This document shows, piece by piece, positions 38,924 to 64,000 of a DNA stretch of 64,000 nucleotides. The first letter of the stretch is position 1; each line of letters starts with the position of its first letter. Position numbers and translations under genes: made by a program. Below the pieces are notes generated by a model, which saw only the letters and a list, made by a program, of their open reading frames with translations, did no database searches and had not been told where the DNA came from. This stretch comes from an uncultured Candidatus Saccharibacteria bacterium (GTDB lineage Bacteria > Patescibacteriota > Saccharimonadia > Saccharimonadales > AWTP1-31): contig CAZWJA010000004.1 of the NCBI GenBank assembly GCA_964634445.1, forward strand, positions 13,258-77,257, written 5' to 3'.

Positions 38924-39457
38924 ATGACAATTGATTTAACTGCCGATAACAAGAAAGTTACATCTACCGCAGTTGCAGAGATGAAAGGACCATCATTAAA
39001 TTCCGGTAAAGCTGTTTTTACAGAATACGATGTCGACGGCTGGAAATACGTTCATATCAAGCTTGAAATTTCCGGCGATCCAAAAGTCTTTACTGCCGGC
39101 AAGCACGCCGTACATATTCATGAAAAAGCAGCTTGTGACTGCGACGGTTTTAAATGTGCAGGCGGGCATTTTGATCCAGGTCCAAACGGCAATACAGACC
39201 CTGACGCCAACCATGGCTACCATGCCGGCGACTTGCCAAGCATTACGGTCGACAATGATGGTAATGGCGTATTGGAAACCCTTACGACAAGAGTCACTTT
39301 ATCTGACGGACCAGTTTCTATATTAAGCAAGGTATCAGCGCCCGACGGTACTTCTTTAATGATACATGCCAATATTGATCCGTATAGCCCTGGCGAATCA
39401 GGTTCGGGCCACAGCGGCGGACCGAGACTTGCCTGCGGTACGATCGAAAAAAGCTGA
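38924..39457 (+). CDS. sodC: Cu/Zn superoxide dismutase
   Basis: HAVHIHE, GGHFDPG, HAGDLP and GGPRLACG motifs. The ORF as called has no N-terminal signal peptide. Confidence 0.9.
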   Translation: MTIDLTADNKKVTSTAVAEMKGPSLNSGKAVFTEYDVDGWKYVHIKLEISGDPKVFTAGKHAVHIHEKAACDCDGFKCAGGHFDPGPNGNTDPDANHGYHAGDLPSITVDNDGNGVLETLTTRVTLSDGPVSILSKVSAPDGTSLMIHANIDPYSPGESGSGHSGGPRLACGTIEKS

Positions 39458-56768: not shown

Positions 56769-58808
56769 TTAAGTATTTTTTAAGAACTTAATAAAATTAT
56801 CTTCGGTAATTATTTTAGTACCTAGCTTCCTGGCTTTTTCAATTTTGCTGGCTCCAACATTTGCTCCTAATACCAAATAGTCGGTGTCTTTTCCGACGCT
56901 GCTCTGAAATGTTCCACCTAGTGATCTAATCTTTTCGGCAGCTTCATCCCGACCCATTGTTTCAAGCGTTCCAGTAACTACGAACTTTTTACCGCTTAAA
57001 GGTCCACCGACCTTTTCAACCGCTTGTGGTTCGACGCCTAAATGCTTGAACTTATCTAGCAACTTACGGCTCTGGGGGTCAGCAAACCAAGCGACGATTG
57101 CCTCGGCTACAATATCGCCAACGCCCTCTACACCCGACAATTCGTCAATGGTAGTTGCCTGGATATTTTCCAGCGTATGAAATCTATTGCTTAAATCAAT
57201 AGCTGTTTGAGTGCCAACATGCCTAATGCCGAGTCCATAAATAAATCTGGCCAGCGGAGGCTGCTTTTTTTCTTGTATTGCCTTAATTAACTTATTGGCG
57301 CTTATTTCTGCAAACCGGTCCAGCTTTAGAACTTGTTCGGTAGTGATATTGTAAATATCTGCCTGATCGGCAATCAGCTTAGCGTCAAGCAGTGCGATAA
57401 CATTCTTCTCGCCAAGTCCTTCTATGTCGAGTGCTGATTTGCTAGCGAAATGCTCTATATGCTTCCAACTTCGAGCTGGACATGCTGTATTTGGACAGCG
57501 CCAAATAACGTCGTCTGCTTTTAATTTTGTTAGCTTAGTATTGCATTCTGGGCAATTAACTGGCATTTCAAACGGTTGTTCTTTGCCAGTCCTGAGTTTT
57601 ACTAGCGGCTCGATTACTTCCGGAATAATATCCCCAGCTTTATGGACGATTACAGTATCGCCAACTCGTATATCTTTTCTTTTAACTTCGTTATCGTTAT
57701 GCAATGTTGCCATCTGGACAGTCGATCCAGCAATCAAAACTGGTTCCAGCATGGCAACTGGTGTTGCAGATCCAGTCCGACCGATAGATATGAATATATC
57801 CTTAACAATTGTGGTCGACTGTTCAGCTGGGTATTTGTAGGCCACGGCAGCTCTTGGAGCTTTACCAACTACGCCTAAGCGGGAGTACATGTTTCGGTCA
57901 TTAATCTTAATTACCAAACCGTCAGTATTAAATTCCAAATCATGCCTTTTTTCTTCCCAGACGTTCGCAAACTCTAAAATTGCTTTTAGAGACGTCACCA
58001 CAGTTGCTTGCTTATTAGCCTGAAGGCCTAATTCACGTAAGTACTGGTAAGCGTCCATATGGGTTGCTACTTCGCTCGGATCGTCGCGGATTAGATCGTA
58101 GGCGTGGAATCGTAACGGCCGGCTAGCAACCAGATTAGGATCAAGCTGCCGAATTGTACCGGCTGCAGTATTGCGCGGGTTGGCAAACAGCGGCAAGCCT
58201 TGTTTTTCACGGCCCTGATTTAGTTTTTCAAAGTCTTTTTTATACAGTACAATTTCACCCCTGATTTCAGTGCGCCCAATCATAAATTTACTTGTTCTAC
58301 TGGTTTTGCGCAGCTGCAGTGGCACCGCATTAATAGTCCGAACATTAGCAGTCACATCTTCGCCGACAAAACCGTCGCCTCTAGTGATAGCTTTTACGAA
58401 ATGCCCATCTTCATACACAAGTGCGCAGGCTAAGCCGTCCATTTTCAGATCCATGAAATAGCCGGCTTTTACACAATCTGGTTCAATCTTTACGATTCGG
58501 TTTTTCCAGGCAGTCAGCTCAGCTTCATTGAAAATATCGTTCAGGCTTAGCATCCTGGTACTGTGACTGGCCCGCTTAAAACCCTTCAAGGCATGCCCAG
58601 CTACTCTTTGAGTTGGAGAATCTGGTGTAATTAGTTCTGGAAAAGCTTCTTCTAGCTGAGATAGCTCGTGCTTCAGACTGTCAGCGGCGGCTTCGTCCAT
58701 GATTGACTTATCGAGTACATGATACTGAAATCGGTAATCATTAATAAGTTCTTTTAGCTTGTCTATTCTAGCTTTTGCCTTTATCTTGTTAGTTTCAATC
58801 TTACTCAT
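56769..58808 (-). CDS. ligA: NAD-dependent DNA ligase
   Basis: Adenylation motif LKMDGLA, Zn finger CPECNTKL...CPNTAC, HhH repeats, and a C-terminal BRCT domain (GKKFVVTGTL). Confidence 0.93.
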   Translation of the reverse strand: MSKIETNKIKAKARIDKLKELINDYRFQYHVLDKSIMDEAAADSLKHELSQLEEAFPELITPDSPTQRVAGHALKGFKRASHSTRMLSLNDIFNEAELTAWKNRIVKIEPDCVKAGYFMDLKMDGLACALVYEDGHFVKAITRGDGFVGEDVTANVRTINAVPLQLRKTSRTSKFMIGRTEIRGEIVLYKKDFEKLNQGREKQGLPLFANPRNTAAGTIRQLDPNLVASRPLRFHAYDLIRDDPSEVATHMDAYQYLRELGLQANKQATVVTSLKAILEFANVWEEKRHDLEFNTDGLVIKINDRNMYSRLGVVGKAPRAAVAYKYPAEQSTTIVKDIFISIGRTGSATPVAMLEPVLIAGSTVQMATLHNDNEVKRKDIRVGDTVIVHKAGDIIPEVIEPLVKLRTGKEQPFEMPVNCPECNTKLTKLKADDVIWRCPNTACPARSWKHIEHFASKSALDIEGLGEKNVIALLDAKLIADQADIYNITTEQVLKLDRFAEISANKLIKAIQEKKQPPLARFIYGLGIRHVGTQTAIDLSNRFHTLENIQATTIDELSGVEGVGDIVAEAIVAWFADPQSRKLLDKFKHLGVEPQAVEKVGGPLSGKKFVVTGTLETMGRDEAAEKIRSLGGTFQSSVGKDTDYLVLGANVGASKIEKARKLGTKIITEDNFIKFLKNT

Positions 58809-61304: not shown

Positions 61305-61362
61305 TTTCCACTCCTTAATTTACCTATTAATTATATCACTGTTAACAATAATATATCTATAT

Positions 61363-62118
61363 TTAACTTGTTACTGCTGATGAAACTTGCGATTTGACGT
61401 TCCAAAGCCAAACTACCAGTCCGATCGAAATAGATAACGAAATTAAATTACCGCTGCTAAAAGACGAAAATTTGTTTAGTGAATTAGCCAAGGTATCTAA
61501 CAAGCCGATAATATTAAGGACTAGAAGTACACTCAGAATAGTATTTACGTTTCTAATTTTCTTAGCATTAAGAAAATATAGACCTAAACCAATATACACG
61601 GCTGCTATTGCAAAGATCGCAAATATTGCAAAACTGGCTACATGCAAGCTTGAGGACTGTTTGGTTTTTGCAGAAGTGAACAGTTCCAATGTATTAAATA
61701 AACTAAGCCATGAAATAGTTGCAAGAAGAAACAATAGGCCGACTACTAATATAAATATGGCATATGGTTTAAGTTCAGGTACAAGCTCGATGACTTTTGA
61801 ATTTCTTAATTGTGGAGATTGTTTAGCTGGAGCTAAACTTGGTGCGACATGATCAAGTACTTCAGGGTAGATACTGTCGGTATTTGTTTCCGTATTTGTC
61901 TGGTTGGTAGGAGTGCTTTTTGGAACAGACGATGAAATTACAGGTTTCGGAGCCGGCTGGGATGGCGTGCTGGCAGTCTGGCCAACAAATTCCGACATAT
62001 CACTTACTGGTTGGATGACTTTGTTCTTAACATGCAGCGATTTACCGTCAACTGCTCTTTTTTCATTAGCTTCGTTTACATTTGAAGCCGGCTTTGGTTC
62101 TTTTTGTTCGTCTTCCAT
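61363..62118 (-). CDS. membrane protein with Ser/Thr/Pro-rich N-terminal region, unknown function
   Basis: 251 aa. The C-terminal half has four hydrophobic helices. Confidence 0.5.
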   Translation of the reverse strand: MEDEQKEPKPASNVNEANEKRAVDGKSLHVKNKVIQPVSDMSEFVGQTASTPSQPAPKPVISSSVPKSTPTNQTNTETNTDSIYPEVLDHVAPSLAPAKQSPQLRNSKVIELVPELKPYAIFILVVGLLFLLATISWLSLFNTLELFTSAKTKQSSSLHVASFAIFAIFAIAAVYIGLGLYFLNAKKIRNVNTILSVLLVLNIIGLLDTLANSLNKFSSFSSGNLISLSISIGLVVWLWNVKSQVSSAVTS

Positions 62119-62206
62119 ATACTGCTGCGTTTTTAATAACGTTAATGTTTACAATCACAATATATGCCAGCGTCTCACAATGCAATAATAAAATATAAAG
62201 CTGTAA

Positions 62207-63400
62207 TTAATTTTTGAACTTGAAATTAATATTGCCAAGCAAAGTCATAACATCTTTATCGCGATCAACGCCAAGCGCTGTACTACCCAATTTCAAAATA
62301 GGAAAAAAGTATTCCGCTAAAGCCTCTTTTTGTACTGTATTCAAATGAGCGTCAATTGCTTTTCTAACATAAAGTAGTTGTTCCTCAGATATAAAGTTAG
62401 AATCATTTCCGGCATCATTTAAAAGTAGTAATTCCGAGTTTGCTTCGCTAAGTTCATGATTTTTAGCTTGGACTTCTTCCCAGGCTATACTCCTGTATTC
62501 CTTACTTACGGCACCAATTAGCTCAAATGGTAGTTCTGTTGGCTCCTCATCATAATATTGATTCCATGTGCGTGCGTGAGCATATGATTCTGCGTTTAAT
62601 TTGTGCTGTCCTCTTGGACGCACGTACTTAGTACTTCTATCTATAGAAAATATACCTTTGTACCCGTCAAGGTATTCCGGAATAACAAATGTCTCAATTG
62701 GATTGCCGGTAGCAGCATCGAATATAATTCCGGATTTGATATCCCTAAGGTCAACGTAGATTGTTCTTACATCTCTGTTTACTTCAGTTCTTGGACCGGT
62801 TCCATAATCATCGGCTTTGAAATCTTCACTAACATCAGACCACCAGCTAGCATTGGAAATTGAATTTGAAAGTTTTCGAATTTTATCGTCAACCTCATGT
62901 CCTCTTAATCCACCTAAACGTACCAATTTCTCGCCAGGTTCATGACGATAAATATAAGTATTTCTAATACCGTTGGATAAAGAAATTTCTACTGCACTTT
63001 GTAATTCGGATGATATAAGCTCGCCGTTTAAAACACTGCTTGAAACAGATCTAAGGGCAGCAACCTGCAAGGGATTATCGACTTCTAATGTGACAGTTTC
63101 TTTACTACGAGATTTTTTTGGCTTAGTAAAAGCTGTTGCAAAGTCACTCACCTGGGTGTCGTTTAGTTTATCAATCCGCTCAGATGCATCGGTTATATCA
63201 AAAAACAACTGCGGTGTTGAGCCGCCTGTTTTGTCAGGATGGATAGCGCTACTAATTGCTCTTTGCACACCTTTTGCTGCTGTTCTGAGAGCATCAGTCG
63301 AACCAACTTCCTGAATCTGCTTTACTATTTCAGGCGTAAGACCAATATCTTCAAATGGATTGGTGCCGAATTGTTCTTCTAAAAACTTCTTCCTATCCAT
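62207..63400 (-). CDS. J-domain-like protein with unrecognised ~320-aa C-terminal body
   Basis: The N-terminal ~75 aa have a J-domain layout: PFEDIGLTPEI..., ALRTAAKGVQRAISSAIHPDKTGG (HPD motif) and LFFDITDASERIDKL. The rest matches nothing I recognise. Confidence 0.55.
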   Translation of the reverse strand: MDRKKFLEEQFGTNPFEDIGLTPEIVKQIQEVGSTDALRTAAKGVQRAISSAIHPDKTGGSTPQLFFDITDASERIDKLNDTQVSDFATAFTKPKKSRSKETVTLEVDNPLQVAALRSVSSSVLNGELISSELQSAVEISLSNGIRNTYIYRHEPGEKLVRLGGLRGHEVDDKIRKLSNSISNASWWSDVSEDFKADDYGTGPRTEVNRDVRTIYVDLRDIKSGIIFDAATGNPIETFVIPEYLDGYKGIFSIDRSTKYVRPRGQHKLNAESYAHARTWNQYYDEEPTELPFELIGAVSKEYRSIAWEEVQAKNHELSEANSELLLLNDAGNDSNFISEEQLLYVRKAIDAHLNTVQKEALAEYFFPILKLGSTALGVDRDKDVMTLLGNINFKFKN

Positions 63401-63447
63401 CTGTGTTCCTTATTACTTAAGATTACTTAAGCGCTTATACTATTGAC

Positions 63448-63981
63448 TTAGTAATCTAAACTTGAAGGTCTATCTGGACCATCATAAGGTGTATATGAAA
63501 AACCTGATGCATCACTACTTTGAAGAACTTGCTGTTCAATAAAGTCTGCATTATCAACATCGAATTCTAATAGTTCAGCCATCCAGCTAGCTCTTGTAAG
63601 TAGAGTACTTTTATGTTCGCCGGCGTTTATTTCTGCAACGCTGTCTTCTCTAGTTCTTGTTGAACCTGAAGTATCGACTGTATGGAAGGAATGATATGGT
63701 ATACCTTTTTTAGTCGCTCTCGCAACTTCATGCTGAAATGTATACTGCACCACACCACCAAGAATTAGTTCAATTGCTTCGTCATCAATCGCAATATCTT
63801 CTCTTGAAAGAAGTAACCCTGCTTTTCGAGCACTACGAATAACTGCTGGTAGAGAAATGGTAGTTTCTGCATTTAATTGCTCATCATTAATAACAGTGTG
63901 AACTTCTAATCCACCAGATAGTGTATGAGGGGATAATTTTTCAGGTAGTCGTGAACTTGTACCTCTAAGATAGCTAAGCAT
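63448..63981 (-). CDS. hypothetical protein
   Basis: 177-aa ORF, 47 nt upstream of and co-oriented with the J-domain gene. No motif recognised. Confidence 0.5.
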   Translation of the reverse strand: MLSYLRGTSSRLPEKLSPHTLSGGLEVHTVINDEQLNAETTISLPAVIRSARKAGLLLSREDIAIDDEAIELILGGVVQYTFQHEVARATKKGIPYHSFHTVDTSGSTRTREDSVAEINAGEHKSTLLTRASWMAELLEFDVDNADFIEQQVLQSSDASGFSYTPYDGPDRPSSLDY

Positions 63982-64000
63982 TTTGCTTGGTGGTAAATAA

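Follow-up and report, generated by a model that had tools for sequence, protein, structure and literature searches.

A divergent J-domain-like protein family and its adjacent upstream partner gene in Saccharibacteria

The window analysed here is a stretch of 64,000 nucleotides (nt) from contig CAZWJA010000004.1 of an uncultured Candidatus Saccharibacteria bacterium. Close to its end it contains an open reading frame (ORF) for a J-domain-like protein of 397 amino acids (aa), named P0001 (62207..63400), and the 3' part of a co-oriented partner gene directly upstream. All features of the pair are on the minus strand. The partner gene is represented by about 183 C-terminal codons (63448..64000, stop codon at 63448-63450), in a frame that stays open to base 64000. 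The spacer between the two genes, read from the sequence, is 47 nt long (63401..63447), and it includes a Shine-Dalgarno-like AAGGA at 63407-63411, 6 nt ahead of the ATG of the J-like gene. P0001 can be divided into three parts. A divergent J domain at residues ~12-95 (63116..63367) was delimited by a family profile, a structure model from AlphaFold2 (AF2) and the Pfam matches of relatives; the codons of its histidine-proline-aspartate (HPD) motif, H54-P55-D56, are at 63233..63241 by sequence and family alignment. It is followed by a variable middle region at residues 96-285 (62546..63115), characterized by low conservation and low model confidence, and by a conserved C-terminal domain at residues ~286-397 (62210..62545) with two invariant glycines, G296 and G389.

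The 397-aa protein had zero matches to Pfam, NCBIfam, PHROG and PADLOC models. It is a singleton cluster among 15 billion proteins, with no match in the GTDB representative genomes, and a word-indexed search of 5.8 billion proteins retrieved only the protein itself and no close relative. The profile of the N-terminal domain (N-domain) retrieved nothing in the word-indexed homologue search, and the A1 profile retrieved only P0016 and P0001. Relatives were detected by an exhaustive phmmer search of 1.84 billion cluster representatives, which gave 24 proteins at E<=1e-3, namely P0001 and 23 distant relatives. The members are mostly 389-427 aa long, and for most of them the similarity lies mainly in the first ~100 residues. 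P0003 is the best full-length relative and could be aligned end to end (27% identity, E=1e-23). In the short members (~255 aa) the middle region is missing, and a linker connects the J domain to the C-terminal domain. Two long members, P0012 (686 aa, L021 6001-8061) and P0024 (711 aa), carry two J domains each, one N-terminal and one internal. These two J domains are spaced by a charged coiled-coil-like stretch, and the L021 neighbourhood of P0012 encodes a DUF87/AAA_10 (VirB4/HerA-like) ATPase, a Yip1 protein and multi-pass membrane proteins. No DnaJ_C or zinc-finger match of Pfam or NCBIfam was found in the window protein or in any of the 24 family members, which places them outside class A and class B of the Hsp40 proteins. 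The family was not described in the literature that we searched. With its partner, the 397-aa protein represents a new small family of what is probably a well-known type of co-chaperone.

The N-terminus of P0001 shows the order of elements of a J domain. Helix I (NPFEDIG) is followed by an extra helix (PEIVKQIQEV), helix II (TDALRTAAKGVQRAISSA), the HPD loop, helix III (PQLFFDITDASERIDK) and helix IV. The motif itself reads K43-G-V-Q-R47-AISSAI-H54-P55-D56-KTGG, then L65-FFDITDASERIDKL, and the stretch L65FFDITDASERIDKL79 is present downstream of HPD. HPD and helix III are spaced as in canonical J domains, and helix III keeps its F..I..A...(L/I) pattern as F66, I69, A72 and I76. Across the family alignment, G20, H54, D56, G296 and G389 were invariant, and N14, P15, R47 and P55 were at least 90% conserved. 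The consensus from 26 copies of the domain was NPFE..GL.P....L.......AL..A..G..R...RALHPD; in its G..R..SRALHPD part a second R/K stands at position 51, besides the conserved R47. The H and D of the motif were invariant in all 26 copies and the P was conserved in at least 90% of them (one family member carries HAD in place of HPD), despite an overall identity of only 16-27% between the proteins.

Sequence searches gave different results for the single protein and for the family. With the single P0001 sequence, the sole J domain matched in the PDB was that of TIM14, with the HPDK and helix III aligned, and this match was non-significant (E=1.1). BLASTP of P0001 against E. coli DnaJ gave no alignment across the J-domain region. 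The profile of the full N-domain matched dozens of solved J domains in a single register, with E-values from 9e-5 to 0.07. When the first 27 positions were removed from this profile, the remaining helices II-IV profile matched T. thermophilus DnaJ2 at E=5.6e-7 (a single stretch, 32 bits), CbpA at 4e-5 and DNAJB9 at 6.5e-5. Among its 38 PDB matches at E<=0.1, 36 were J-domain proteins, aligned HPD on HPD. These results support the idea that the N-terminus of P0001 is a genuine, strongly divergent J domain, recognizable as remote homology and lying outside strict Pfam membership. The earlier note on this DNA, made without database searches, had proposed a J-domain N-terminus for the 397-aa ORF and had made its case dependent on an HPD motif conserved in homologues; both points were borne out by the family profile and alignment.

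The end of helix I, the extra helix and the start of helix II (GLTPEIVKQIQEVGSTDALRTA, residues 16-37, 63290-63355, minus strand) resemble, as a helix-short loop-helix unit, the repeats of the transcription activator-like effectors (TALE) of Xanthomonas (GLTPEQVVAIASNGGGKQALETV). This resemblance was regarded as a coincidence, with one copy and no array. TALE proteins did rank first with the family profile, only through summing of 12-15 weak repeats (the best single repeat had an i-Evalue of 63), and the likeness was rejected because the high ranks are an artefact of the summed repeats.

At the same time, the structure of the N-domain was modelled. The AF2 model had a predicted local distance difference test (pLDDT) value of 92.7 and contained helix I, the extra helix, an 18-residue helix II, the HPD motif, helix III and helix IV, with the HPD directly after helix II and before helix III. 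In the Foldseek search against the PDB, HscB was the second match (TMq 0.50, root-mean-square deviation 4.2, E=5). Against BFVD, 11 of the 18 top matches were annotated as J-domain or DnaJ proteins (TMq 0.46-0.54, probability up to 0.90). The helical fold of the model would agree with a J domain, and J domains are over-represented among its closest structural matches, none of which is significant by itself.

Conservation falls past residue ~95 and peaks again at residues 291-300 and 361-390. In residues 96-285 the column information was 0.9-1.9 bits per 10-residue block, compared with 2.3-2.9 bits in the J domain; this region was predicted to be beta-rich, and its AF2 pLDDT was mostly 35-75. 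The C-terminal domain was modelled at pLDDT 65-80. Its G296, in the pattern ..hhG(S/A)h(D/S)..F/Y, and its G389, in ..DG.h.hhG.h, were invariant in 24 of 24 members, including the short and the double-J forms. Because the short members hold the J domain, the linker and the C-terminal domain, the minimal architecture is a J domain plus a C-terminal domain of ~110 residues, and the beta-rich region (~96-285 in P0001) is a lineage-variable insert. When the AF2 model of the whole protein was searched against PDB folds, no match fell below E=0.5, and the profile of the C-terminal domain found no relative in the PDB. Small beta-barrels (Tudor, MBT, cold-shock) recurred among the non-significant fold matches (E 0.7-3) over residues ~130-300 (window 62500-63010). 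The middle region may contain SH3-like barrels; because the matches are non-significant and fall in a part of the model with low confidence, they carry no weight in the interpretation.

In the partner gene there is no in-frame stop between the ATG at 63981 and base 64000, and the residues LPPSK ahead of this ATG align with the (N/Q)PS(K/S) motif conserved in the partner family. Relatives of the partner have 238-258 aa, and in the alignment the window copy covers solely their C-terminal two-thirds. The 15-billion-protein collection contains both neighbour proteins but lacks this exact 177-aa sequence. For these reasons, the length of 177 aa is an artefact of the window edge, and ~95-100 N-terminal residues lie beyond 64000. 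The earlier note had described a 397-aa ORF with a co-oriented 177-aa ORF upstream across a 47-nt gap; the long ORF, the orientation and the gap were confirmed, and the length of the neighbour had to be revised. The partners have the motifs YLRG, S..vIRsA..G..L and YTF..V.RatK.G.PY.T.H in common, and the window copy matched the hidden Markov model (HMM) of the partner family at 1e-60. The partner had no Pfam match (E<=1) and no PDB relative, and the window ORF likewise had no NCBIfam, PHROG or PADLOC match. The statement of the earlier note that the body of P0001 and the neighbouring protein matched nothing recognizable therefore agrees with our searches, in which no described relative was found for either.

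A co-oriented homologous partner was located directly upstream of the J-like gene in 8 of 8 informative core-family loci, with a gap of 6-51 nt. The eight are the window and the loci of P0016 (L001-L006, L028), P0003 (L007, partial), P0004 (L008), P0005 (L009), P0009 (L024) and P0019 (L026), together with L029; L023 and L025 were uninformative, as their sequence ends less than 90 nt upstream of the J-like gene. The upstream genes are homologous to one another (partner-HMM E-values 1e-21 to 1e-112). Between the J proteins of these loci the identity is only 17-36%, and the genes downstream of the pair are unrelated from locus to locus. The co-occurrence of the two ORFs, on which the earlier note had staked their pairing, is thus a regular feature of the core family. 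The gap of 6-51 nt is compatible with co-transcription of the pair. Upstream of the short form P0023, an overlapping gene matches the partner marginally (hhalign E=2e-4, probability 46%; HMM 1e-4).

In three of the loci the pair lies in a conserved core context of NTP-transferase, partner, J-like gene, rplU (ribosomal protein L21), parA and parB (L001 2565-7560, L024 59-2373, L029 4321-9493). The J proteins of these loci have diverged to 36-41% identity while the gene context was kept, and the pair behaves as a stable chromosomal unit in this lineage. A comparison of housekeeping genes, meant to place the homologue contigs taxonomically, showed no gene in common between them and the Saccharibacteria sequences analysed. 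Acidic and often aromatic C-terminal tails were observed in the partners of the window (63448-63500), L001, L007, L009, L024 and L026, and also at ORF ends in L022, L023 and L025; examples are ...DRPSSLDY, ...PEWDE, ...DDYDDESFA and ...AGEWY. The acidic tail may be a docking tail.

Taken together, the two genes probably form a small operon for a specialised (class C) J-domain co-chaperone and a dedicated partner to which it would direct DnaK; we hold this reading with moderate confidence. A J domain carrying one additional helix between I and II would be formed by the N-terminal ~85 residues. Together with helices II and III, its HPD loop would bind to DnaK/Hsp70 and set off the hydrolysis of ATP. 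The target would be selected by the conserved ~110-aa C-terminal domain and the variable beta-rich middle region. Because the adjacency is strict across very deep divergence, the upstream product (~240-260 aa, with the acidic tail) is the likeliest target or regulator of the J protein. It would most likely be the target, as a client or adaptor handed to DnaK; alternatively, it might act as a CbpM-like modulator of the J protein. The observations behind this reading are the family membership, the conservation of HPD, the profile homology to J domains, a helical model that agrees with one and the strict adjacency of the genes; stimulation of Hsp70, contact with the partner and the direction of regulation are the steps that we infer.

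Several observations weigh against this reading. Pfam DnaJ (PF00226) did not match P0001 or its isolated N-terminal 101 aa even at E<=10, and the PF00226 search of residues 1-80 that the earlier note had suggested as a check was accordingly negative. The best relatives gave Pfam DnaJ matches over helix II, HPD and helix III (P0014 25.8 bits, 1.1e-5; P0012 18.7 bits, 1.9e-3; P0003 18.6 bits, 2.1e-3), all under the gathering cut-off of 27.8 bits. The N-domain model has five helices instead of the canonical four, owing to a helical insertion of ~12 residues between helices I and II. Helix II of P0001 contains K43 and R47 together with S50 and S51, and is less basic than in canonical J domains. 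None of the Foldseek matches of the N-domain reached significance by itself (the lowest E-value was 0.5 in BFVD, and HscB had E=5 in the PDB), and the AF2 model of the body was of low confidence (pLDDT mostly 35-78). The gene adjacent upstream of P0012 and of P0014 has no Pfam match and no detectable kinship to the partner. Finally, no Hsp70 signature was found in the 64-kb window or in any of the other loci analysed, and the DnaK-sized ORF at 36623..38446 is BipA/TypA. DnaK is near-universal among bacteria (PMC8215388).

The position of the pair in the genome bears on two of the other explanations. In the window, LemA (5.6e-61) and the M48 peptidase HtpX (3.2e-32) were recognized by Pfam; together with a 336-aa membrane protein and LigA they form a string that recurs in seven related Saccharibacteria metagenome-assembled genomes (MAGs). 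Upstream of LemA, these MAGs carry unrelated genes, and their regions there have almost nothing in common. In four of the MAGs, tRNA-Cys(gca) and tRNA-Leu(taa) adjoin LemA on the upstream side (L010 7141-7448, L012 7244-7403, L014 6335-7043, L020 2579-2747). The same spot in the window (61305-64000) holds three strain-specific genes and no tRNA, and its far boundary is outside the window. The third gene, besides the pair, encodes an orphan membrane protein of 251 aa (61363-62118, minus strand), 88 nt from the pair. It is a singleton among 15 billion proteins. Its N-terminal half is of low complexity and rich in S, T, P and Q, about four transmembrane helices are predicted, and its only Pfam matches (Asterix E=0.0025, Otopetrin E=0.79) are both far under the cut-offs. 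By tblastn and HMM, the J-like gene, the partner and the 251-aa protein were absent from the syntenic region of all seven MAGs. This suggests that the three window-specific genes are an insertion at a variable tRNA-associated spot. The variable region of one MAG (L010 1620-4250) contains an 876-aa protein with ATPase-like motifs, beside an aldo-keto reductase and a kinase-like gene.

Such a location could also be expected of an accessory or conflict module. The pair and the orphan membrane gene would then be an islet acquired by horizontal transfer, and its J protein would manipulate an Hsp70 for purposes other than housekeeping, for instance in a defence or toxin/antitoxin-like pair dependent on DnaK, or as an effector delivered by the episymbiont to hijack the DnaK of its actinobacterial host. 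Besides the absence of the three genes from the seven MAGs and the tRNAs in four of them, the singleton status of P0001 and the membrane protein and the variable-looking surroundings of some homologues, with RadC and a type I methylase in L009 and the DUF87/AAA_10 ATPase in L021, are in its favour. J-domain proteins of this kind exist: Rki of phage RB43 is one, and HopI1 of Pseudomonas syringae is an effector of a plant pathogen. However, PADLOC and PHROG gave no match for the family members or the partner, except for one marginal SduA match (0.0087) when PADLOC was applied to 18 family members. No relative was found in 50,697 phage genomes and 72,556 plasmids (tblastn) or in the IMG/VR scan, and no signal peptide is visible in the P0001 sequence. 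The GC content of the last 2 kb (0.38) lies within the range of the window (0.37-0.45; 41% overall), and the core-genome context in L001, L024 and L029, retained despite 36-41% identity, points to stable vertical inheritance there. We consider a conflict module unlikely, while giving it some weight.

It can also be asked whether the domain still works with Hsp70 at all. In a repurposed or pseudo-J domain, either descended from a J domain or only similar to one, the H..D pair would serve another role such as metal binding, catalysis or partner binding. P0001 falling under every curated J-domain threshold, its extra helix, the reduced basicity of helix II, structural matches that are individually non-significant and the member with HAD would all fit this explanation. 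J-like domains without Hsp70 function, such as Tim16/Pam16, typically lose the HPD. In the present family, by contrast, the H and D are invariant and the P nearly so across proteins that are 16-27% identical, which is the signature of selection on an Hsp70-activating loop, and the helix III pattern F..I..A..L and the canonical spacing are retained. Loss of the Hsp70 function is therefore a rather improbable explanation.

A special form of manipulation would be directed at the host of the bacterium. By analogy with HopI1, the J protein, perhaps escorted by the acidic-tailed partner, might be delivered into or onto the actinobacterial host, where its HPD would commandeer the host DnaK. The strain-specific unit, the variable tRNA-associated spot and the very fast evolution outside the J domain are consistent with this, and nothing positive was found for secretion. 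We regard this scenario as highly unlikely; if it were true, no chaperone-hijacking effector would have been described before it from the Candidate Phyla Radiation.

The earlier note had considered the pair as part of a proteostasis or surface-assembly module with the neighbouring LemA/HtpX string, so that the pair, the membrane protein, LemA and HtpX would work as one unit. All these genes point the same way and lie close together (88 nt to the 251-aa gene), and no terminator-like site was detected on the minus strand between them. The terminator scan was uninformative, however, with counts at or below the shuffled expectation; promoter and terminator scanning and folding of the 88-nt spacer likewise gave results no better than shuffles. 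Furthermore, the seven related MAGs keep the string from LemA to LigA without the pair or the 251-aa protein, and LemA and HtpX were not near the pair in any homologue locus, including seven other independent locus groups, in which the genes downstream of the pair differ. These results indicate that the pair is not functionally tied to LemA/HtpX and sits beside LemA together with an orphan membrane gene, and the probability that remains for a common unit is very small. The explanation as a spurious ORF, or as an HPD that arose by chance in some unrelated helical stretch, for which one could cite the non-significant single-sequence searches and our own estimate that a lone HPD tripeptide occurs in ~2% of proteins of this length (~0.02 per protein), is effectively refuted by 23 homologues of matching length and architecture, by the profile match at E=5.6e-7 with 36 of 38 matches to J proteins, and by the HPD itself, which is above chance because it is invariant across a family found only via exhaustive search.

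Other genes of the window were also inspected. LigA (56769..58808) shares 66-69% identity with its counterparts in several Candidatus Saccharibacteria/Saccharimonadales MAGs, which assigns the window to a TM7-type episymbiont of reduced genome. A Pif1-family helicase (33784-35106, minus strand), a Cu/Zn superoxide dismutase (38924-39457, plus strand) and a 497-aa CHAP-domain protein (28464-29957, minus strand) look accessory for a reduced genome; all three are unrelated to the pair.

The site of Hsp70 action is determined by J-domain proteins, whose large catalogues rest on Pfam/InterPro calls (PMC10410713). Because the P0001 family falls under the Pfam/InterPro thresholds, divergent J proteins are being missed, in this case in ultra-small, host-dependent Saccharibacteria with tightly reduced genomes. 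A survey built on InterPro J-domain calls counted 2,712 architectures of class C J proteins (PMC10410713). Since class C is extremely diverse, another class C architecture is unsurprising in kind. What is new is a J domain with an inserted helix that escapes Pfam, a new C-terminal domain, a new partner family and the occurrence in Saccharibacteria. A J protein that is always paired with one partner would be a compact and testable case of a dedicated Hsp70 client or regulator. The P0001 family opens no new mechanism. In practice the gain is modest, in that about two dozen orphan protein clusters receive an annotation and work on chaperones of uncultivated bacteria receives a lead.

The pair can be compared with several known systems. 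The J proteins of viruses and effectors (giant-virus, phage) resemble P0001 in having a stand-alone J domain on an orphan body, and they are the best BFVD neighbours of the N-domain model, whereas the P0001 family has no phage, plasmid or viral-contig relative, no PHROG match and no evidence of secretion. Tim14/Pam18, the only J domain matched by the single P0001 sequence, was matched by the family profile at E=0.0095. Its J domain of ~70 residues, a minimal one belonging to the mitochondrial import motor, is membrane-anchored and paired with the J-like Tim16, whereas the partner here is not J-like (the J_N HMM matches J-like genes only).

The class C (type III) J proteins of bacteria, such as DjlA, HscB and DjlB/DjlC of E. 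coli, likewise join an N-terminal HPD J domain to an unrelated body that confers specificity. P0001 resembles them in having no Pfam match for a G/F region, a zinc finger or DnaJ C-terminal domains, and HscB was its best relevant fold match in the PDB. It differs in a J domain that is missed by PF00226 and has an extra helix between helices I and II, in an obligate upstream partner gene, and in a body and C-terminal domain that match neither HSCB_C, the TerB-like/TM region of DjlA nor any other known domain.

In gene arrangement, the precedent is CbpA-CbpM, a J protein with an operon-encoded specific partner, where CbpM binds the J domain and blocks the access of DnaK (PMC8215388). CbpA is a class B protein with DnaJ C-terminal domains, and CbpM is a MerR-like protein of ~100 aa encoded downstream, whereas the partner here is ~240-260 aa long, encoded upstream and without a MerR or other Pfam match. 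The proteins are unrelated, and the two systems are likened on their gene arrangement: in both, a J protein stands beside a small and, in our case, probably dedicated partner with no other assigned function, and the J domain of CbpA is among the best matches of the family profile.

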